From NCBI GenBank assembly GCA_964504365.1, contig CAZDDW010000003.1:8031-72030 (forward strand): 64,000 nt of DNA. The letters are read 5' to 3'. This stretch comes from an uncultured Gammaproteobacteria bacterium. GTDB taxonomy: Bacteria; Patescibacteriota; Patescibacteriia; UBA9934; CAZDDW01. The first letter of the stretch is position 1. Each line of letters begins with the position of its first letter. The position numbers were made by a program, and so were the translations under genes. The notes beneath the pieces were generated by a model. The model was not told where the DNA came from and made no database searches. It saw nothing but the letters and a program-made list of their open reading frames with translations. Below, one piece after another: positions 5,784-45,347 of this stretch.

Positions 5784-6050
5784 ATGCCAAAAACAAAAAT
5801 ACCCCGGTCAACCGGGGATACCATTCGTGCAGTGTTCGCTGGCGAGATCGAGCCAAGGCCGGATCCTGAACGTGACCGAGTTACTCGGCAACTGACCGAA
5901 GAAATGTGCGGCACGTACGCCATGGATCACATGCCGAACGTCGGTGCTGAGGGTCCGGTTCGTTCCGAAGAGAATCGTGTCGAAGGTGTTGGTGGCGACC
6001 GCCGCAGCCATCTGCGATCGCCACACTCACGAGCACATCGCCGCCGCTAA
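5784..6050 (+). CDS. small GC-rich hypothetical protein (88 aa) with an Arg/His-rich C-terminus
   Basis: Strong ribosome-binding site aaggagg 8 nt upstream of the ATG, a hairpin terminator immediately downstream, and a GC content far above its neighbours. Confidence 0.4.
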   Translation: MPKTKIPRSTGDTIRAVFAGEIEPRPDPERDRVTRQLTEEMCGTYAMDHMPNVGAEGPVRSEENRVEGVGGDRRSHLRSPHSRAHRRR

Positions 6051-6058
6051 CCAACTTC

Positions 6059-6080
6059 TAGACCCATCTCGGGTCTTTTT
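6059..6080. terminator. bidirectional hairpin terminator between the small ORF and recO
   Basis: tAGACCCatctcGGGTCTttttt, flanked by A's on one side and T's on the other. Confidence 0.55.
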
Positions 6081-6081
6081 C

Positions 6082-6855
6082 TTATACCAAACTAGCAACT
6101 CTTAATGATGTGGCTGGAATGGTTGGAAAATGACAGACCAGGAGTGATTCGACCAGGTCGTGGAATTCGAGCAAGGTCTGGCCAGGGATAGTTGGTTTAA
6201 GAAATTCTGTTGGTGATTCACGTGAAGCAAAGCGGATTAACTTCAAAGCGTCATCTGATATCTCACGCGCAGCAAACCAACTTTCCTGATCAACCATAAC
6301 ACAGCGAGAACAGACTACCCCGCCCTTGAGTCCATGCCAGCGATACGTACCCGGCTCGATCTCTAACTTGCAAGACAAACATCGCGTCAACTCTGGACGA
6401 TATCCTGAAATGCCGAGCAACTTCAAAGCAAAGGCAGCGAGCAAGAATCCAGCACGTTCTTGCGAGATCTCTGGCACACTTTCAATAAATTCAAGCCACT
6501 TTAAAACCTCCTGATACAACACTGGATCCTGCTCTTCGTGACGTGTAGCCAGGTCAACCAGATGCAGTGTCTGGCGCGCCAGGAGCAAACGATTTATGTC
6601 TGTGCAGATTGGATGATACGCTCGCAATCGCTCTACACCAGCAACAGTGTCGACTACACGGCCTCGTACTACCAACAAATCCAGAATCGCGAACGATTCG
6701 AGATGTGGACCAAGCTTGGCTCCAATCTTACGCGAGCCACGAGCATGCAATGACATCTTGCCTCGTTCCTCTGTCAAAACAGAATAAACACGATCATGCT
6801 CTCGATGATCGCGTCGGGCTAAGACTATTCCGTTTGTTTGAAACAGGACTGACAT
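6082..6855 (-). CDS. recO: DNA repair protein RecO
   Basis: 257 aa with an N-terminal OB fold (MSVLFQTNGIVLARRDHREHDRV) and a C-terminal Cys4 zinc motif (CLSC...CSRC). Confidence 0.75.
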   Translation of the reverse strand: MSVLFQTNGIVLARRDHREHDRVYSVLTEERGKMSLHARGSRKIGAKLGPHLESFAILDLLVVRGRVVDTVAGVERLRAYHPICTDINRLLLARQTLHLVDLATRHEEQDPVLYQEVLKWLEFIESVPEISQERAGFLLAAFALKLLGISGYRPELTRCLSCKLEIEPGTYRWHGLKGGVVCSRCVMVDQESWFAAREISDDALKLIRFASRESPTEFLKPTIPGQTLLEFHDLVESLLVCHFPTIPATSLRVASLV

Positions 6856-7247
6856 TATTTGTTTTGATCTAAATACGCTTGCAAGACTAACATGGCAGCC
6901 AGGGCATCGTCCGCAGCCTCAGCACCTTCTTCACGCTGCAAGCGAATGCTCTCAGCGGTTGTGTAGCGTTCGTCTTCTTCGTGGACTGGGATCGAGACAA
7001 CCTCTTGTAAACCTTTAATAAACGACCGTGTCTTTTCTAATTGTGGCGAACCTGGCCCTTCAACCGTAGACAACGGAACCCCTATAACAATCTCATCGAT
7101 CTGTTCAACAGCGATTCGGTCGGCCAGTTTTTGATAAATGTTCTCAACATTCTGGATTACATCCAAAGGCACAGCAATACCGGCTTCTGAATCCCCAAAA
7201 GCTAGTCCGATCTTTTTATCTCCATAGTCGATTCCGAGATACCTCAT
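6855..7247 (-). CDS. ruvX: Holliday-junction resolvase-like RuvX/YqgF
   Basis: MRYLGIDYGDKKIGLAFGD, the RNase H-like YqgF signature. Confidence 0.75.
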   Translation of the reverse strand: MRYLGIDYGDKKIGLAFGDSEAGIAVPLDVIQNVENIYQKLADRIAVEQIDEIVIGVPLSTVEGPGSPQLEKTRSFIKGLQEVVSIPVHEEDERYTTAESIRLQREEGAEAADDALAAMLVLQAYLDQNK

Positions 7248-8020
7248 ACTGGTAGTGGGGTTAAAATCTCAGGACCGGATTCTGTGGCTACCATCGTCAC
7301 TTCAAAGTGAGCCGCCAGCGAGCGATCTGCAGTCACAGCTGTCCAGCCGTCGTCTGCGGTCTCTAATAAATATTCTCCGGCTGTAATCATTGGCTCAAGG
7401 GCCAAACATTCACCTTCTACAATTTTTTTCTTCTTCATTGCTCGATCATAAAAATTTGGAATCCGTGGTTCCTCATGTACTTCATGACCGACTCCGTGTC
7501 CGACCAATTGTCGTACGATTCCATATCCATGCGGTGCAATCGACTTTTCAACAGCCATACCGATATCTGCGATCGTGCCACCGACATGCACAGAAGCAAC
7601 AGCGTCGAGCAAAGCCTGCTTTGTCGCAGCCATTAGATCAGAAGCCTCCTTTGACACATTACCCACTGGCACAGTCACTGCCATGTCCGTGTATAGATCT
7701 TTATATTTGCACCCAAGATCAAGTCCAACAATATCGCCTTCTTTGAGTTCAATGTCGCGATCTGCGGTTCCATGAACAACTTCTTCGTTTATGGAAACGC
7801 ACAATGAACTTGGAAATGGATTGTCATCATGTGGCGTAGAGAAATTCAAAAATGAAGGCTCACCGCCCCCTGCCCTGATCTCAGCTTCTGCGATCTTGTC
7901 CAGCTCAGCAATCTTTGCACCCGGCCGCACCGCTTTGACCGCTTTGCCTAGTGCCTGTGATAGGATCTGCCCACCTTCTCGCATTAACTCAATTTCCTGT
8001 TCAGTCTTCTTTATAGCCAT
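7244..8020 (-). CDS. map: methionine aminopeptidase type I
   Basis: MetAP metal-ligand motifs are present, including DIVGLD and HGVGHEVHE. Confidence 0.85.
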   Translation of the reverse strand: MAIKKTEQEIELMREGGQILSQALGKAVKAVRPGAKIAELDKIAEAEIRAGGGEPSFLNFSTPHDDNPFPSSLCVSINEEVVHGTADRDIELKEGDIVGLDLGCKYKDLYTDMAVTVPVGNVSKEASDLMAATKQALLDAVASVHVGGTIADIGMAVEKSIAPHGYGIVRQLVGHGVGHEVHEEPRIPNFYDRAMKKKKIVEGECLALEPMITAGEYLLETADDGWTAVTADRSLAAHFEVTMVATESGPEILTPLPV

Positions 8021-8022
8021 AT

Positions 8023-8511
8023 TTATTTAACATCTTCAAAGATCCCTAATTTTTTATTCTTTTTAACTTTGTCCCACTGGAAAATATGGCCATTCATGGC
8101 GATATAAACACCGGCCGGCATAGACTGAGCAAAAGCAATAGCACTGCCCAAATTAAATAATCCATCAGAACTACCGAACTTCCAAGGAACCATTGCTCCA
8201 GTCAACACAACGGTCTTGTCTTTAACTTTTTCAGCAACCACTTCTGCGGTATCAACCATAGTGTCAGTACCGTGAGTAATAACAATATTCTTCTCATCAA
8301 CCTCAGCACAATTCTCAGCAACTGTTTTTCGATCTGCATCAGTCATATCCAAAGAATCAATCATCATTAAAGTGCGCATTTCTACATCAACCAAATTTCT
8401 TCCCAACTTAAGCATTTCTGGCAAGTGTGTGTCTTTAAAAAACAACTCACCGTTTAGCTCATTATACTCTTTATCAAACGTCCCTCCGGTTAGAAAAATT
8501 CTTACTTTCAT
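8023..8511 (-). CDS. L-asparaginase-family N-terminal-domain-only protein (162 aa)
   Basis: FLTGGTFDK, ITHGTDTM and VVLTGAM match the asparaginase/glutaminase N-domain motifs; no C-terminal domain follows. Confidence 0.5.
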   Translation of the reverse strand: MKVRIFLTGGTFDKEYNELNGELFFKDTHLPEMLKLGRNLVDVEMRTLMMIDSLDMTDADRKTVAENCAEVDEKNIVITHGTDTMVDTAEVVAEKVKDKTVVLTGAMVPWKFGSSDGLFNLGSAIAFAQSMPAGVYIAMNGHIFQWDKVKKNKKLGIFEDVK

Positions 8512-8513
8512 AA

Positions 8514-9140
8514 TTATATTTTCAGACTTTTAGTTATATTGTTTGCTACTTCCTCAATCGAACCACTGCCATCAATCTCAACCAAAATTCCCATTTCTCG
8601 ATATCGCTCAACCATAGGTTCAGTTTGTTCATGATAAACCTTCAGCCGTTCACGTATCGCCTCTGGTGTATCGTCTTCACGCTGCTCTGGCTTGCCACCA
8701 CAGGGACAACCTTCTGCTGGTGGTGGATTGTATTCAATATGATAAATCCGACCGCAAGCAAAACAGGTGCGCCGCCCAGAAATCCGCTCCACAGCCGTGT
8801 CGTCATCCAGGTTGATCAGTATTGCGTGCGTTGGCTGATCGATTTTTAAAAACAGATCAAGTTGATTCAGGCGCCGAGGAAAGCCGTCAAGGATATAGCC
8901 GTTCTTTGCATCGTCGCGATTCAATCGTTCACGAACAACCTGATCTGTCAGATCATCTGGCAACATCTTACCAGCATTAATTGTCTCATCCACCTGTTTA
9001 CCCAGAGGGTTATCCTGCTCGGCAATCTGACGCAATAGGCGCCCCATAGAAATCGCTGGTATCCCAAGCCTCTCAGACAGCTTTTCCGCCTGAGTACCCT
9101 TCCCAGAGCCCTGCGGCCCAATCATTAATATCTTATGCAT
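8514..9140 (-). CDS. adk: adenylate kinase with a Cys4 zinc lid
   Basis: P-loop MIGPQGSGKGTQ, and the lid motif CFACGRIYH...CPCGG. Confidence 0.85.
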   Translation of the reverse strand: MHKILMIGPQGSGKGTQAEKLSERLGIPAISMGRLLRQIAEQDNPLGKQVDETINAGKMLPDDLTDQVVRERLNRDDAKNGYILDGFPRRLNQLDLFLKIDQPTHAILINLDDDTAVERISGRRTCFACGRIYHIEYNPPPAEGCPCGGKPEQREDDTPEAIRERLKVYHEQTEPMVERYREMGILVEIDGSGSIEEVANNITKSLKI

Positions 9141-39222: not shown

Positions 39223-40401
39223 TTAGTCAATCATGTTAATAAACAGCGCTGCGATCGCGGCAAGGAAAAAGGCCCACGGCAAAGTAACAAAACCGAGCAA
39301 GATCAGCAGCGCAGCTATCATAACCACTCGCCCAATAGTAATCGCCATATCGCGAAGCACCGTATACTCGTCAACATAATGCCCAGCATCTGCAGCCTTC
39401 TCATACATCAGTGCATCAAACGGCGTTCGCATCATGATCAAGGCAAAGTTATGGAAGGTTGAAGCGATGAAGATAGTAAAGGCTGTAGTAACAAAAGCTT
39501 TGATTATCCAACCAATAGCGTAGATCCCGGTTCCAATCTTAAGCAATTTCTTTTTTGATTTGTGGTCAGCCAAGTCACCCATGACCAGACGTATAACCAC
39601 ACTAACCAAAACGATCAAGGTTGAAATAAAACCAACTTCTAAATAATTCCCGTCAAGAACCTCAAAAATGAATATCGGCCAGATCAGATAACCAACCATG
39701 CTCTGAGCACCGTCGGCCATGTAGGCCAAGAACATGTGTCGATGTTCTTTATCAAATAATTTTCTGAAAGTCTCAAAGTAACCAAAGCTATATTCTTCTG
39801 TGACGTGCTGTGAGAAAAACAAAGGTAAAACCGATGCTAGGATGATCGCCCCAGAAGCAAGGAACAATGAGTCATAACCAAACTTGACGATGATGAAACC
39901 GGCCACAAACGGCACAGCGATACTGACGAGTGACGAGATGCTCGACAAAAAGCCAATCGTTCGGCCACGATGACGACGATCAGTAAACTCAGCAAACTCG
40001 GTATGAAATGGAGTCCAATAAAGCATTCGCCAAATATTGTTCAGAGTCAGGGCAATACCAAGAAAAAGCCAAACGTTCTCGAAGTTATCAAAGAAGGCAT
40101 AAAAACCGTGACAGAGCCCGTAGGATAGAACCGCTAAAATCATCATCCACTTCAAACCGATCTTGTTCATTAGCTTGGCCCCGGGAACGAACAAGAAAAC
40201 GGTCAGTCCAAAGTTGATCATGAAGTACCAAAGCAGCACGGTCGGATCATTGCCAAAACTTTCGTACAAAAAAATCGGCAAGAACAGGCCAATCAGGCCA
40301 GCACCGAACTGAATAATCAAACGGTTTGAATACAACGAAACCATGCCCGCGCTAAACTGCGGATGGAATCGGCTGAATCCTCTCATTTTCCTCCAAGGCA
40401 T
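39223..40401 (-). CDS. MFS-type transporter
   Basis: About 12 hydrophobic transmembrane segments; start uncertain. Confidence 0.65.
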   Translation of the reverse strand: MPWRKMRGFSRFHPQFSAGMVSLYSNRLIIQFGAGLIGLFLPIFLYESFGNDPTVLLWYFMINFGLTVFLFVPGAKLMNKIGLKWMMILAVLSYGLCHGFYAFFDNFENVWLFLGIALTLNNIWRMLYWTPFHTEFAEFTDRRHRGRTIGFLSSISSLVSIAVPFVAGFIIVKFGYDSLFLASGAIILASVLPLFFSQHVTEEYSFGYFETFRKLFDKEHRHMFLAYMADGAQSMVGYLIWPIFIFEVLDGNYLEVGFISTLIVLVSVVIRLVMGDLADHKSKKKLLKIGTGIYAIGWIIKAFVTTAFTIFIASTFHNFALIMMRTPFDALMYEKAADAGHYVDEYTVLRDMAITIGRVVMIAALLILLGFVTLPWAFFLAAIAALFINMID

Positions 40402-40403
40402 AT

Positions 40404-43310
40404 TTAGATAACAAAGTTAATCAATCGTCCTGGGACGTAAACTGTTTTCTTGATTTTATTGTCTGCAACAAACTTCTGAACATTCTCTTCTGCCAAAGCC
40501 AGCTTCTCTGCCTCCTTCTGGTCTAGATCTGGAGCTACCATTATTGTACCACGTAACTTTCCATTAACCTGAATCGGCAACTCAATCGTTTCGTCCTTAG
40601 CCAACTTTGGATCAAACTCTGGCCAAGCCTCAAACGTGATCGACTTCTTGTTTCCTAACTGCTGCCAGATCTCCTCAGTCACATGTGGAGCAAACGGTGC
40701 AAACACGGTCAGAAACTTAGCAAGGCTTTCTTTTGTAATCGAACCAGTGTCTTGTATCTTGTTAACCAGAATCATCATCTGCGATACGGCTGTGTTATAT
40801 TTCATTTCTTCGATATCAGAAGTTACCTTCTTGATTGTCTTGTGCAGCTCGCGAGTCACATCTTCGTCTTCTTTCTTTGCAACCATGTCCTGCAAATTCC
40901 AAACCTTTTCCAGGAACCTACGCACACCAACTACACCAGTCGTACTCCAAGGAATTGCTTCGCTAAAAGGACCCATGAACATTAAATACACTCGCAGCGT
41001 ATCAGCCCCATACTGCTCAACAATCTCATCCGGATTAATCACATTGCCAAACGACTTAGACATCTTGCGCCCGTCCTCAGCCAGAATCATCCCATGTGAA
41101 GTGCGCTTTTGGTATGGTTCGCTAGTTGGCACATGCCCTTGGTCGTGCAGGAACTTATTCCAGAAACGAGAGTAGAGCAAGTGCAGCGTGGTGTGCTCCA
41201 TTCCGCCGTTGTACCAATCAACTGGCATCCAATTCTTCAACTTATCTTCAGCCGCAAACACCTTATCGTTCTTTGGATCGATATAGCGCAGGAAATACCA
41301 ACTAGACCCAGCCCAGTTTGGCATCACATCAGTCTCACGCCTGGCAGGACCACCACATTCAGGACAAGTCGTGTTCACCCAATCGTCAACATTAGCCAAC
41401 GGTGATTCACCAGACTCAGTTGGTTCGAACTTCTTTACCTCAGGTAATTCAACTGGAAGCTGTTCATCTTTAACCGGCACCCAACCACCGTTTCGTTTCG
41501 AACCTTCATTATCCCAATCCGACACCGGCTTCTTATAACACTCTTCACAATGAACCAAAGGAATCGGCTCACCCCAATATCGTTGTCGAGAAAAAACCCA
41601 ATCACGTAACTTGTAATTAACTGCGGCCTTGCCCTTACCTTCTTTTTCCAACCACTGATTCATCTTCTTAATCGCCTCTGGCGTGTGCAGACCATCAAGA
41701 AAATCCGAATTAATACATTCGCCTTCACCAACAAAAGCCTGACCTTGATCTGAGTCAAGCTCCGACTTCCAACACCGCAGTTCAGAACAAGCCATACTCT
41801 CTTCTGTAATCTCACAACGATCAACCCAGCGTATTTCATGGGCTGCTTTTTCCTTATCCTCAACATCCACTTGCTTTTCACTTTTCAGATCAAACACGAT
41901 CGCGGTACTGTAAGCAACGCGATTCTCTTTTTTATGAGCAGCATAATATTCTGAACGAATCTCCTGACTCATAAACTTTCGAAATTCCAAATCAACATAT
42001 CCTGTTTCTTCTTCAATCTCACGTTTAGCAGCATCGATCAAATCCTCTCCATCATCAACCCCACCTAGAACAAAAGTTGTCCAAGGGTGTTTTTTCCAAT
42101 CAAGACACAAATATTTGTCAGTCTTTGGATTATGGACAATAGCCATTATCATTTTTCGAGTCACAATCTTCTTGCCTTTTTGTGGTGGATTATTTTTATC
42201 ACATACGCAAGGTGCTACCACTTGTTGAATCAGTAGACCAAACTTTATAGCAAACTCAAAGTCACGCTCATCATGCGCAGGAACAGCCATGATCGCACCA
42301 GTACCGTAGCCCATCAAAACATAATCAGCGATCCAGATTGGAATCTTTTCATTGTTCACTGGATTAGTCGCATACGCGCCAGTAAACACTCCTGTTTTTT
42401 CTTTTGATACATCACCGCGCTCAATATCCGTTTTCGCGGCAGCCTCTTTCTTATACTTGGTCACGGCCTTCATCTGCTCCTTGGTCGTGATCTGCTCTAC
42501 TAACTCATGCTCAGGCGCCAAGACCATATATGTAGCTCCAAACAAAGTATCCGGACGAGTTGTAAAGACTTTCAAATACGGTGTCACTCCGCCGGACTTT
42601 TGATCAACCTCAAACTCAACAATCGCACCTTCAGATCGGCCGATCCAGTTAGCCTGCTGCGCTTTGATCTTGTCCAAGAAATCAACAGTATCCAAATCAT
42701 CTAACAACTTGTCGGCATAGCGAGTGATCTCCAACATCCATTGCTCACGATCCCGCTTCTCAACTTCCCCACCACAACGCTCACACTTTCCATCAACCAC
42801 TTCCTCATTAGCCAAACCAATCTTGCAAGACAAACACCAATTAATCGGCATCTTGGATTTGTAAGCCAAACCAGCCTTGAACAACTGCAAGAAAATCCAT
42901 TGTGTCCATTTGTAATAATTCGGATCTGTCGTGTCCACCTCACGCGACCAATCAAAAGAAAAACCAATAGACTTCAGCTGACGCTTAAAGGTTGCGATGT
43001 TCTGCTGAGTCGCCTCACGCGGATGAGTCCCAGTCTTGATCGCGTAGTTCTCGGTCGGCAAACCAAAAGCGTCCCAACCAATTGGATACAAAACATTATG
43101 CCCCTCAGCTCGTCGCTTACGCGCCACAATATCCAGCGCGGTGTAAGATCGCGGATGTCCAACGTGCAAACCGGCTCCTGACGGATAAGGAAACTCAACT
43201 AAACAAAAATACTTCGGCTTGTCCGAATTATCCTGCGCTTCGTATAATTTTTTCTCCTCCCAAAACTTTTGCCATTTAGGCTCGATTTCTAAGTGGTTGT
43301 ACCGATCCAT
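40404..43310 (-). CDS. leuS: leucyl-tRNA synthetase carrying an inserted Nudix hydrolase domain
   Basis: HVGH, TRPDT editing motif and KMSKS are present. About 165 extra residues lie between AHDERDFEFA and NSDFLDG, containing a perfect Nudix box GGVDDGEDLIDAAKREIEEETGY. Confidence 0.9.
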   Translation of the reverse strand: MDRYNHLEIEPKWQKFWEEKKLYEAQDNSDKPKYFCLVEFPYPSGAGLHVGHPRSYTALDIVARKRRAEGHNVLYPIGWDAFGLPTENYAIKTGTHPREATQQNIATFKRQLKSIGFSFDWSREVDTTDPNYYKWTQWIFLQLFKAGLAYKSKMPINWCLSCKIGLANEEVVDGKCERCGGEVEKRDREQWMLEITRYADKLLDDLDTVDFLDKIKAQQANWIGRSEGAIVEFEVDQKSGGVTPYLKVFTTRPDTLFGATYMVLAPEHELVEQITTKEQMKAVTKYKKEAAAKTDIERGDVSKEKTGVFTGAYATNPVNNEKIPIWIADYVLMGYGTGAIMAVPAHDERDFEFAIKFGLLIQQVVAPCVCDKNNPPQKGKKIVTRKMIMAIVHNPKTDKYLCLDWKKHPWTTFVLGGVDDGEDLIDAAKREIEEETGYVDLEFRKFMSQEIRSEYYAAHKKENRVAYSTAIVFDLKSEKQVDVEDKEKAAHEIRWVDRCEITEESMACSELRCWKSELDSDQGQAFVGEGECINSDFLDGLHTPEAIKKMNQWLEKEGKGKAAVNYKLRDWVFSRQRYWGEPIPLVHCEECYKKPVSDWDNEGSKRNGGWVPVKDEQLPVELPEVKKFEPTESGESPLANVDDWVNTTCPECGGPARRETDVMPNWAGSSWYFLRYIDPKNDKVFAAEDKLKNWMPVDWYNGGMEHTTLHLLYSRFWNKFLHDQGHVPTSEPYQKRTSHGMILAEDGRKMSKSFGNVINPDEIVEQYGADTLRVYLMFMGPFSEAIPWSTTGVVGVRRFLEKVWNLQDMVAKKEDEDVTRELHKTIKKVTSDIEEMKYNTAVSQMMILVNKIQDTGSITKESLAKFLTVFAPFAPHVTEEIWQQLGNKKSITFEAWPEFDPKLAKDETIELPIQVNGKLRGTIMVAPDLDQKEAEKLALAEENVQKFVADNKIKKTVYVPGRLINFVI
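41715..42210 (-). other. Nudix (MutT-like) domain embedded in leuS, about residues 368..532
   Basis: Nudix box G-x5-E-x7-REUxEExGU matched exactly, with flanking strands of the Nudix fold (MAIVHN, AIVFDL, HEIRWV). Confidence 0.6.
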
Positions 43311-43357: not shown

Positions 43358-43448
43358 AACTAGACAACTAGATAACCAGACAACAAGACAACTCATACAG
43401 CCAAAATCGTATCATATTTAAGGCTCCAAGGCAATTTACTGCTTTACC

Positions 43449-43478
43449 TTGACAAACCCATCTTTCCATGCTTAAATA
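43449..43478 (+). promoter_or_regulatory. sigma70-like promoter (TTGACA, 18 nt, TAAATA)
   Basis: Lies upstream of the 43605 gene. Confidence 0.4.
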
Positions 43479-43604
43479 CCTTCTCATGCCACGCGCTGGG
43501 CAAGGCTCTCACAGGGTACTACGACCTCACCGGTCCTGGGCTCTACCAAATGGGACTTGATCCCTGATCCTTGTACTAGCGTCTACCACGAAAGGAGATG
43601 TGCC

Positions 43605-44900
43605 ATGAGTCGTGACGAAAAAGAAACCCCTCTTTCCAAATTCGTATCCACCCTGGGACGGCTATTGCCGAAGTTCGAACGCCGAGAGCTTCCGCTCTCA
43701 CGTTTGGACAACGCGCGCATGGCTCTGGATGGAGCAGCCGTCCCGCTTCCGAACAGCGCTGGACCGCAGCTACCGACCAAACTCTACGGCGGCGTCAACG
43801 AGGTCGCTCTGGCTGCTGATGGCACCAGATTCGTGACCGGAAAGCGACACGGGAGAAAAGGTGAAAAGGTCGTTCTCTTGAGGGCGATGCCGGGCAGCGA
43901 TCAGTTCGAAGAGGTCGACTCGGCACCGGTCATCGAGCGACTCTTCGTACCAGAAGGATCGAACAAGCCAGCCTACATGCGCGCCATCGAACGTGGTGTC
44001 AGCCATGCCGAGTGGGTCTGGAACGGCCTGACTCTGCCCGGCGACCAGAACGACATGGACACTCGCCCGCTGTTCTGGACCAATGATCAAGGGATCAACG
44101 GGGCCGTAATCACCAAGGGAAAGTTGTACGTGTGGCATTCCGGCCAGCGGCACATCGTTGGTCTTCCTCACCGATACAGAGAATACAAACCAACTCACAT
44201 CCAGCTCATCAGTAAAAGCCTGTTCCAGATCTGGGGTCTTCCAGCCCACCAGGATGTGGTTGTCTGGCGCGACAAGGTGGGTCCTGCGGGAATGTACATT
44301 GACCGTGAATCAGTAGTCAGGGGCGTCAACGCCGAGCCCTGGTTCTTGGCCCGAGCCAACGCTGCCCATGGCCCTGTCCACGTCTGCAACATGGACGGGC
44401 TAGAGCGGATGCTCGAACACAAGCCCGAGGGCATCTGGACCGCTCCTGGGAAGATCTTCGTCCTGGAAGAGACCCTGACTGGGCCCGACGGTCCGAGCTG
44501 TCGCGTCCATGAGGTCATCTCAGGCTGGAGTTCAGACTTGCTCGACCAGCAGGTCGAGCAAGTCTGGGCACTGAGTGGTCACTCCAGTGACATCGCCCTT
44601 CACAACCGAAACTCGGGAGTGCTGCGCTATCTGAGTGAAAGTAGCAGCGTCATCGGACAAGCACCGGCAATGTCACGCGCCAGTGTCCGACAGATGGGCA
44701 ACCTGTTCGTCTATCAGATCGGCGATACCTTCGCCTTCCTGAAAGACACCAACATCGAATTCTCAGCCCACAGAATTCCGCGACAAGAACTGGGGCTCGA
44801 ACATCTGGTGCTCATGAACGACGGGACGATCCAGGGCATAGTCAAATCCGGTACGAGTGTGGTGACGTATACCTTCTTCGATCCAAGCAAGCGCGCGTAA
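43605..44900 (+). CDS. GC-rich hypothetical protein (431 aa)
   Basis: Start at MSRDEKETPL with ribosome-binding site aaaggag; hairpin terminator cccccg-aacgact-cggggg plus T-run at 44905..44940; no recognisable motif. Confidence 0.45.
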   Translation: MSRDEKETPLSKFVSTLGRLLPKFERRELPLSRLDNARMALDGAAVPLPNSAGPQLPTKLYGGVNEVALAADGTRFVTGKRHGRKGEKVVLLRAMPGSDQFEEVDSAPVIERLFVPEGSNKPAYMRAIERGVSHAEWVWNGLTLPGDQNDMDTRPLFWTNDQGINGAVITKGKLYVWHSGQRHIVGLPHRYREYKPTHIQLISKSLFQIWGLPAHQDVVVWRDKVGPAGMYIDRESVVRGVNAEPWFLARANAAHGPVHVCNMDGLERMLEHKPEGIWTAPGKIFVLEETLTGPDGPSCRVHEVISGWSSDLLDQQVEQVWALSGHSSDIALHNRNSGVLRYLSESSSVIGQAPAMSRASVRQMGNLFVYQIGDTFAFLKDTNIEFSAHRIPRQELGLEHLVLMNDGTIQGIVKSGTSVVTYTFFDPSKRA

Positions 44901-45008
44901 CGGATCATCTCCCCCCCCGAACGACTCGGGGGATTTTTTATTGAAACATAAAAGGACACCCGCAAGGAGTGCCCCACGTACGGGTCAACGGCCGTTGACC
45001 CCTACATT

Positions 45009-45347
45009 TTAACTTTCTTCCCCAAACTGTAACTGGTGTCCAGCTTCCATCCAGCCGTGCAAGCCGCTGTCAAACAAGTCGACCTGCTGGTAACCAAGCT
45101 CTTGCAGTTTCTTAATCGCGTCAAAGCATTCTTGCTTGCCATGGAAGTCAGCATAAACAATTACCGGAACTTCCTTGTCTAGCAAAACCTTAGCCGCGGT
45201 CTCGACAAAATTAGTATCGTACGGCAGATTGACCGCACTGGCAATGTGATTGTGTTCGTAATGTTCAGCATTACGAATATCAACAAGCATAAAAGTCTCA
45301 TCAGCATCCATCTTAGCTTTTAGCTCGTCAGCAGTAAGTGTAAGCAT
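45009..45347 (-). CDS. rhodanese-like domain protein, probably inactive (Asp in place of the catalytic Cys)
   Basis: 112 aa with the rhodanese fold pattern; the active-site loop reads VIVYADFHGKQ where Cys is expected. Confidence 0.65.
   Translation of the reverse strand: MLTLTADELKAKMDADETFMLVDIRNAEHYEHNHIASAVNLPYDTNFVETAAKVLLDKEVPVIVYADFHGKQECFDAIKKLQELGYQQVDLFDSGLHGWMEAGHQLQFGEES

Follow-up and report, generated by a model that had tools for sequence, protein, structure and literature searches.

Introduction

Aminoacyl-tRNA synthetases (aaRSs) belong to the most studied enzymes, and the CP1 editing domain is their textbook inserted module. It is the classic inserted domain of the leucyl-, isoleucyl- and valyl-tRNA synthetases (LeuRS, IleRS and ValRS), and lineage-specific extra CP1 segments, as in archaeal and eukaryal LeuRS, are a known theme. 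This study examines the leuS gene on a 64,000-nucleotide stretch of contig CAZDDW010000003.1, referred to as the window. The window LeuRS likewise has CP1 in its Rossmann fold with the editing motifs kept. It differs from the classic case in that CP1 itself hosts a complete foreign enzyme domain, which belongs to the Nudix family.

A 2026 survey of domain insertions classed PF13603, the editing-domain family, as insertion-exclusive: it gives '100% insertion behavior' for the family over 213 events and 'zero instances of host function' for families of its class (PMC13114784). In a large fraction of candidate phyla radiation (CPR) bacteria CP1 is host to another intact enzyme, which contradicts this claim that the domain never acts as a host.

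There are partial precedents for the architecture. IleRS with an N-acetyltransferase domain (NCBIfam NF040702, ileS_w_GNAT) is an aaRS with an extra catalytic domain, but that domain has another fold and chemistry, and the window LeuRS is not a member of the family, as its 73 bits fall far below the cutoff, 1999. Nudix proteins with duplicated domains have been described (cited in PMC5389931), and the subfamily of the insert also contains tandem copies (P0182, P0187) and a Ser_hydrolase-Nudix protein (P0268). The multi-Nudix proteins are end-to-end fusions, whereas the LeuRS Nudix domain lies within a loop of another domain and occurs in up to three copies at separate sites. The described Ap(n)A hydrolases and RppH (NUDT2, the lupin and Aquifex enzymes, Thermus thermophilus Ndx1, Mycobacterium tuberculosis Rv2985 and Escherichia coli RppH) are 15-19% identical to the insert, and unlike it none is embedded in a synthetase. 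The 2017 survey of the Nudix clan never mentions tRNA or synthetases (PMC5389931). No description of a Nudix domain in any synthetase was found in open-access papers, and one in a subscription journal is possible. LeuRS, CP1 and the Nudix fold are individually well known, and the sequences are public with PF00293 already annotated. What appears to be new is a nested, seemingly catalytically intact Nudix domain found widely across CPR LeuRS, with counterparts in the prolyl-tRNA synthetase (ProRS) of DPANN archaea and in LeuRS of some Firmicutes.

Results

A Nudix domain nested in the CP1 editing domain

A first-pass annotation, made from the nucleotide sequence alone, had proposed a Nudix domain inserted into a LeuRS of 968 aa. 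The uninterrupted reading frame at 40404..43310 on the minus strand does encode 968 aa. It was aligned from residue 1 with the structure of T. thermophilus (Tt) LeuRS, 1H3N (E = 4.9e-224), such that aa 1-365 correspond to Tt 1-362 and aa 524-745 to Tt 375-580. The nested Nudix insert lies between these segments at aa 366-523 (~158 aa; 41742..42215, minus strand), in place of the 12 loop residues Tt 363-374 at a β-hairpin tip in CP1. The interval originally proposed, 41715-42210, corresponds to aa 367-532 and is indeed the insert, and the original size of ~165 residues is close to that obtained with 1H3N. The flanking motifs were also placed correctly, AHDERDFEFA at aa 345-354 and NSDFLDG at aa 534-540, except that the motif given as YRLRDW reads YKLRDW (aa 566-571).

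The Nudix domain begins 11 residues past the AHDxRD editing motif. Downstream of it the LeuRS fold resumes in AFVGEGECINSDFLDG... (aa 524-565; 41616..41741, minus strand), which comprises the hairpin's return strand and the C-terminal portion of CP1. This segment aligns with Tt LeuRS from residue 375 and is conserved in insert-bearing and insert-less relatives. The distance between the flanking anchors is 179 residues in the window LeuRS and 13-57 residues, typically 26-35, in 30 insert-less close relatives. The junction is clearest in comparison with P0009, an insert-less LeuRS that is 83% identical: P0009 reads VVSGGDISKEAYVGDGKLINS where the window protein reads VVAP[~157 aa]AFVGEGECINS.

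Whether the insert is simply a normal LeuRS subdomain had been raised at the outset, and three results argue that it is not. The Pfam editing-domain match is interrupted at profile position 146/185 (aa 371), where the NUDIX match starts; solved LeuRS structures have only a short loop at the insertion site; and close relatives 68-83% identical cleanly lack the insert. A complete Nudix domain is nested at the hairpin tip of CP1, making it a domain within an already inserted domain.

An AlphaFold (AF2) model of the insert built from 41 homologs had a very high confidence (pLDDT) of 94.9 and a predicted TM-score (pTM) of 0.89. The modeled secondary-structure elements follow the Nudix order, and the predicted structure has the Nudix alpha/beta/alpha sandwich fold. 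A two-domain model of CP1 plus Nudix (pLDDT 91.1, pTM 0.85) suggests that the two share a defined interface and that the insert is not on a floppy tether.

The insert also differs from its host in base composition. Third-codon-position GC is 0.31 in the insert and 0.49 in the rest of leuS (41742-42215 versus the remainder of 40404-43310), a difference of ~4.5 standard deviations. It is also lower in 8/9 relatives for which DNA was available (L002-L012), with z from -1.3 to -5.3. These values are compatible with a lateral origin, with relaxed codon selection, or with slow translation that aids folding.

Two trivial explanations were discarded. An intein or other self-splicing element does not fit, as the fold is Nudix and not HINT, and the His-Asn junction was not seen in the sequence. 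An assembly chimera or frameshift does not fit either, as the frame is continuous and an identical 968-aa protein occurs in independent assemblies, at NCBI on an 80-kb contig and at ENA. The 90%-identity cluster of the window LeuRS also includes JGI fragments.

Conservation of the Nudix active site

Pfam NUDIX (PF00293) matched aa 389-501 with 44.6 bits against a cutoff of 21.1 (E = 1.8e-11). The Nudix box, GGVDDGEDLIDAAKREIEEETGY (aa 416-438; 41997..42065, minus strand), had been called textbook in the first-pass annotation, and every position does fit GX5EX7REUXEEXGU. When the window is translated in six frames, the strict pattern is found a single time, against an average of 0.0 in 200 shuffles. 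Taken with the predicted fold, we consider the insert to be almost certainly a true Nudix domain.

Conservation was examined in 41 diverse inserts. G416, E431, E434, E435, G437 and W495 are invariant, and E422, R430, K460 and N463 are conserved in ≥90%, so that the catalytic Glu residues, whose loss on careful alignment would have spoken against the original proposal, are retained. Identity meanwhile falls to ~36% among the inserts and to ~62% among the hosts. The metal-binding and catalytic residues are under strong purifying selection across hosts whose inserts have diverged this far. Retention of the Nudix-box residues despite drift elsewhere is the pattern expected of a working active site, and the insert is probably an active, Mg2+-dependent pyrophosphohydrolase. 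A variant box, in which the first Glu is replaced by Gln, Tyr or Asp or the Arg by Lys or Met, was found in ~11/86 inserts, all with EExG retained.

A putative X-loop specificity segment, EYYAAHKKENR (aa 454-464; 41919..41951, minus strand), follows the box. Positions +17 and +18, counted from the box, are aromatic, and the segment also holds the conserved K460 and N463. The residue at +18 (aa 456) is aromatic in 41/41 inserts (Y 21, F 19, W 1) and that at +17 (aa 455) in 36/41, while K460 and N463 are each present in 39/41. A Tyr in the X-loop ~16-18 residues downstream of the Nudix box is a specificity motif of the Ap(n)A hydrolase/RppH subfamily (PMC5389931). Y456 pairs with the specificity Tyr of the human diadenosine tetraphosphate (Ap4A) hydrolase NUDT2, in an alignment that is weak (E = 0.015).

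The host is predicted to be a functional LeuRS

The window protein passed the NCBIfam cutoff for bacterial leuS, TIGR00396 leuS_bact, with 999.8 bits against 548.4, and its PF13603 editing domain scored 210.5 bits. Both class I signatures are present, HIGH as HVGH (aa 49-52; 43155..43166, minus strand) and KMSKS (aa 749-753; 41052..41066, minus strand). In the editing site, the threonine-rich motif TTRPDT is intact (aa 250-255; 42546..42563, minus strand), and AHDERDFEFA (42249..42278, minus strand) holds the universally conserved editing Asp. All four motifs, HIGH, KMSKS, TTRPDT and AHDxRD, are conserved in ≥90% of LeuRS relatives, insert-bearing and insert-less alike. Judging from these motifs, the window protein is predicted to be a functional bacterial-type LeuRS capable of leucylation and editing. 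Since the synthetic and editing motifs are intact, the insert is likely additive and does not replace editing.

The region matching the leucine-specific domain of Tt LeuRS (Tt 581-636) is absent from the window LeuRS in the 1H3N alignment (aa 745-749). It is absent as well from insert-less CPR relatives, which are 795-826 aa long against 878 aa for Tt LeuRS.

The insert is common and labile in CPR LeuRS

The distribution of the insert was examined in the 120 closest LeuRS, which were aligned; the hosts are mostly 55-62% pairwise identical and form a star-like sample. A Nudix insert occupies the same hairpin in 86/120, mostly from metagenome-assembled genomes (MAGs) of Patescibacteria/CPR. Between the same anchors these inserts measure 154-185 residues, and nearly all measure 173-185. 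There is no insert in 30/120, and 4/120 have a different insert at the Nudix site, one nucleotidyltransferase-like (P0033) and three without a Pfam match. Named sources include Uhrbacteria, Magasanikbacteria, Kerfeldbacteria and Paceibacterota. The nearest species-representative locus named as a CPR group comes from a Candidatus Uhrbacteria MAG, at 80% identity. The original view that the insert is not a standard LeuRS feature is correct for model bacteria and wrong for this lineage, in which it is the majority state.

The insert alone was then compared with 1.84 billion representative proteins in an exhaustive HMMER search, which returned 382 proteins at E ≤ 1e-3 and 202 at E ≤ 1e-10. The 148 new top matches comprised 102 LeuRS, 35 free-standing proteins of ~140-230 aa and 11 others, among them a ProRS and the tandem Nudix and Ser_hydrolase-Nudix proteins described above. 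Two or three Nudix copies, at other sites, were present in 11/102 LeuRS (P0122-P0127, P0133, P0145, P0156, P0162, P0191); P0122 has two copies before the editing domain and one within it. An early indication that the insert is extremely rare was dismissed: a word-indexed search with the insert alone gave a single match, which was an artefact of the index, as full-length and HMMER searches gave hundreds.

On a neighbour-joining tree of the host columns, at least 16 changes of insert state were required among the 120 LeuRS, including losses in the clade of the window protein itself. The insert has thus been gained or lost repeatedly. Aminoacylation does not depend on it, as its clean loss from close relatives indicates. 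The pairwise identities of hosts and inserts were uncorrelated (Spearman 0.06), which was judged uninformative in a star-like sample and is not evidence of transfer. The distribution is that of a lineage-enriched architecture and not of a one-off, lineage-wide and labile, and possibly spreading laterally.

Other loops of CPR LeuRS also accept domains. Additional insertion hot-spots lie after ~aa 239, 322, 605, 652 and 812-820 in the numbering of the window protein. The domains found there (P0011, P0053, P0045, P0108, P0062) are Ser_hydrolase (alpha/beta), HAD phosphatase, Ham1/ITPase (180.8 bits) and ASCH. Two further LeuRS, P0022 and P0116, contain DUF559/MTES_1575 endonuclease-like domains.

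Two observations concern the public records of these proteins. Five of the loci (L002, L009, L011, L014, L019) carry Pseudomonadota or Gammaproteobacteria titles in GenBank, while their LeuRS are 52-81% identical, in the best aligned segment, to the CPR type; the titles look like mislabelled taxonomy. In addition, several insert-bearing proteins are named 'class I tRNA ligase family protein' at NCBI and not leucine--tRNA ligase. We suspect that the insert is the reason for the generic names, and if so, completeness estimates and metabolic reconstructions of CPR genomes may under-call leuS.

Nudix inserts outside CPR LeuRS

A Nudix insert was found in the same CP1 hairpin in three gut MAGs of low GC (27-32%), L004, L006 and L007, with LeuRS reading frames at about 5900-8820; the labels of these MAGs are Lachnospiraceae, Bacillota and Bacilli. 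For L004 and L006 the closest LeuRS bodies are those of Clostridia without the insert (L032, L065), with 81-83% identity in the C-terminal 330 aa, and the nearest relatives of the L007 LeuRS are those of Bacilli (~57-60%). In L004 the flanks of the insert are 70-95% identical to an insert-less relative up to clean junctions in the same hairpin. This pattern suggests either a domain-level lateral gain or a recent loss outside CPR.

The subfamily also occurs in a synthetase of the other class. A class II ProRS encoded in L086 (2762-4693) contains a Nudix domain that scores 180.8 bits against a profile of the LeuRS inserts and sits between the anticodon-binding and C-terminal domains. The domain was found in only five ProRS clusters, which form a small clade (L086 ProRS, P0270-P0273, P0218), and their insert-less relatives are labelled Nanoarchaeota/Woesearchaeota, which are DPANN archaea.

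Free-standing relatives and their gene neighbourhoods

The three closest free-standing relatives (~1e-30) are P0146, P0147 and P0152, and all adjoin synthetase genes. P0146 (L082) lies 13 bp after argS and upstream of ileS; P0147 (L086) lies two genes before the Nudix-bearing proS; and P0152 lies 2 bp before a Nudix-bearing leuS. The ileS gene of L082 (8702-12256) encodes a 1184-aa IleRS with an inserted His_Phos_1 domain and is flanked by free-standing Nudix genes. The same locus encodes dUTPase, thymidylate kinase (Tmk), an ITPase-type NTPase (PF01931) and four Nudix proteins. Altogether 3/9 free-standing relatives examined lie within two genes of an aaRS gene (P ~0.04 under a rough expectation of 9%).

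Comparison with characterized Nudix enzymes

The top structural match of the insert is 2AZW (UniProt Q836H1), a MutT/Nudix structural-genomics entry from Enterococcus faecalis, which is a free-standing protein of 148 residues and ~16% identical. It is followed by RppH (score 13.7), a Bacillus thuringiensis Nudix protein, the Ap6A hydrolase Ndx1 (13.1), the Ap(n)A hydrolase Rv2985 and AvrM14 (12.9), and many other Nudix classes score 12-13 in the same comparison. A profile search of PDB sequences again returned 2AZW, with AvrM14 second and the lupin and Aquifex Ap4A hydrolases within the top six.

The NCBIfam subfamily models scored far below their cutoffs. The RppH models NF001934-NF001938 gave 14-24 bits against cutoffs of 116-259 (best 24.4 against 118), the MutT / 8-oxo-(d)GTP diphosphatase model TIGR00586 gave 13.5 bits against 97.9 and NF008044 was likewise not reached, and NudB gave 30 bits against 103. 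Searches of PADLOC, PHROGs and NCBIfam with the insert returned only generic or sub-threshold Nudix matches, with no link to a defence system or phage. In these comparisons homology points to no single substrate.

Discussion

Proposed hydrolysis of dinucleoside polyphosphates in cis

The first-pass annotation had offered hydrolysis of Ap4A, leucyl-AMP or a misactivated adenylate, or a regulatory role. Ap4A-type hydrolysis appears to be the best supported of these, indirectly. The explanation that we tentatively prefer overall is an active Nudix pyrophosphohydrolase in CP1 that acts on dinucleoside polyphosphates derived from the adenylate. The Nudix domain, active with Mg2+, would be held at a fixed position on CP1. 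Aminoacyl-AMP would react with ATP or other NTPs in a side reaction to give Ap4A and related Ap(n)N, and the embedded domain would hydrolyse these where they are made, as a built-in scavenger. Such scavenging could hold down the level of an alarmone or by-product in minimal-genome organisms.

Two lines of evidence led to this proposal. Linkage of the Nudix domain to both synthetase classes points to a trait common to all aaRSs, namely the conversion of ATP to aminoacyl-AMP with its Ap4A side reaction. This linkage, together with an aromatic X-loop residue like the Tyr of Ap(n)A hydrolases, is why Ap(n)N hydrolysis is proposed. The Ap4A hydrolases and AvrM14 among the six best PDB profile matches are a further hint, and the conserved Nudix residues, the intact LeuRS motifs and the modeled docking on CP1 also favour the proposal. 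That Ap4A or another Ap(n)N is the actual physiological substrate is a possibility on which we would not insist. If Ap4A is cleared in cis, this would be the first case of a synthetase breaking down the Ap4A that it makes, a molecule whose role in physiology has long been in question.

Several points weigh against this explanation. LeuRS is not counted among the strongest Ap4A producers in the older literature, and ArgRS, the product of the gene beside P0146, is not known to make Ap4A. The many losses of the insert imply that its function is dispensable. The aromatic residue at +18 of the X-loop is as often Phe as Tyr, and the corresponding segment of 2AZW is similar. No NCBIfam Nudix subfamily model came near its cutoff with the insert, and the best structural match provides no substrate, as the function of 2AZW is listed as undetermined (PMC5389931). 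Five more distant free-standing relatives are not beside aaRS genes, and their neighbours are uridine kinase, MarR, Fic and another Nudix protein. P0158, also free-standing, follows fpg/MutM by 4 bp on three contigs, which hints at a MutT-like role; such GO-system adjacency was seen for this 1/9 of the free-standing relatives examined, and there is no such neighbour in the window. Finally, the domains present at other LeuRS hot-spots, among them Ham1/ITPase, HAD and alpha/beta hydrolase, fit general house-cleaning at least as well.

House-cleaning as the main rival

A house-cleaning enzyme is the close, main rival of Ap(n)N hydrolysis. The Nudix domain would then be a general sanitiser of the nucleotide pool, for example an 8-oxo-(d)GTPase resembling MutT or a pyrophosphatase for non-canonical NTPs, with no mechanistic link to leucylation. 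In streamlined genomes, small housekeeping hydrolases would be fused into permissive loops of an essential, constitutive protein, an arrangement that assures co-expression and saves regulatory DNA. The variety of domains at other CPR LeuRS sites supports this reading, as ASCH and nucleotidyltransferase-like domains occur there in addition to the hydrolases just named. So do the His_Phos_1 insert in the IleRS of L082 with its neighbouring nucleotide-metabolism genes, the GO-system context of P0158, and the frequent gain and loss of the insert, which is missing even from the 83%-identical relative.

Against house-cleaning, the host is mostly LeuRS (102/148 top matches) and not a random essential protein, and the same Nudix subfamily recurs in ProRS, a synthetase of the other class. 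The closest free-standing relatives adjoin aaRS genes, the MutT-family models score well under cutoff, and the two-domain model predicts a defined CP1-Nudix interface. On balance we regard house-cleaning as a serious contender, somewhat less likely than Ap(n)N hydrolysis.

A possible aaRS-specialised domain cassette

A broader version of the Ap(n)N proposal is that the Nudix subfamily moves laterally as a domain cassette, is specialised for aaRSs and is retained for destroying Ap4A/Ap(n)N by-product or alarmone in cis. We consider this generalization doubtful at present. It would have the domain entering one and the same CP1 hairpin in LeuRS of CPR and of the Firmicutes-like kind, further LeuRS loops in multiple copies, and the ProRS of DPANN archaea, in hosts otherwise unable to control the by-product. 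If correct, it would define a class of control over alarmones or by-products, embedded in aaRSs, that has gone unrecognised, and the aaRSs of ultra-small cells would serve as a scaffold on which nucleotide-hygiene enzymes are mounted (Nudix, ITPase, HAD, histidine phosphatase and alpha/beta hydrolase). The occurrence of the Nudix domain in DPANN archaea, in a class II synthetase, and the hygiene domains at LeuRS hot-spots suggest a general, undescribed coupling of tRNA charging to control of nucleotide by-products or alarmones in minimal-genome symbionts.

Less likely alternatives

An RNA-directed activity of the RppH/NudC kind is distinctly unlikely. The Nudix domain would use the closeness of CP1 to tRNA-Leu or other RNAs to remove a 5' triphosphate, an NAD cap or an Np4A cap. 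CP1 does touch the acceptor end of the tRNA during editing, which is established LeuRS biology, but it deals with the 3' CCA end and not the 5' end, and RNase P leaves the mature tRNA with a 5' monophosphate and so with no obvious substrate to offer. The mRNA-decapping effector AvrM14 was the second-best profile match among PDB sequences, and the RppH models were among the best NCBIfam matches, though their scores were far below cutoff. In none of the nine loci of free-standing relatives do genes for RNA degradation, for instance RNase genes, adjoin the Nudix gene.

Nudix domains without catalysis typically no longer have the metal-binding Glu or other box residues. A non-catalytic appendage with a structural, tRNA-binding or ligand-sensing role, comparable to NrtR-type regulators or ribosomal protein L46, is therefore hard to reconcile with E431, E434, E435 and the box glycines being invariant in 41 inserts while the rest of the domain drifted to ~36% identity. 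The variant box of ~11/86 inserts would fit such a role, and so might compensation for the leucine-specific domain that the window LeuRS lacks; however, insert-less relatives that lack this region too are widespread. We judge this alternative very unlikely.

Extra proofreading, in which the Nudix domain would hydrolyse leucyl-AMP or non-cognate aminoacyl-adenylates as pre-transfer editing beside the post-transfer editing of CP1, is the least probable reading: the domain does sit inside the editing domain and is tied to two different synthetases, but the CP1 editing site is fully conserved with no deficit to offset, the ProRS insertion is not near an editing module, and adenylate hydrolysis is chemically the least likely activity: the linkage cut by Nudix enzymes is a pyrophosphate, which an aminoacyl-adenylate, as an acyl-phosphate mixed anhydride, does not contain.

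Surroundings of leuS in the window

The window contains one reading frame of LeuRS architecture, which is leuS itself, and no further Nudix gene of the insert family was found in it. Directly upstream of leuS lies a GC island (43400-45200; 58-62% GC against a window mean of 45.8%). It contains a reading frame of 447 aa (43557-44900, plus strand) on the strand opposite to all its neighbours, for which there was no Pfam or PHROGs match and no exact copy in a collection of 15 billion proteins. The island may be foreign DNA. Genes for UDP-glucose dehydrogenase, comEC, glutamate dehydrogenase and infB make up the leuS neighbourhood. An MFS transporter gene (39223..40401, minus strand) starts 2 bp after the leuS stop codon and is probably co-transcribed with leuS.

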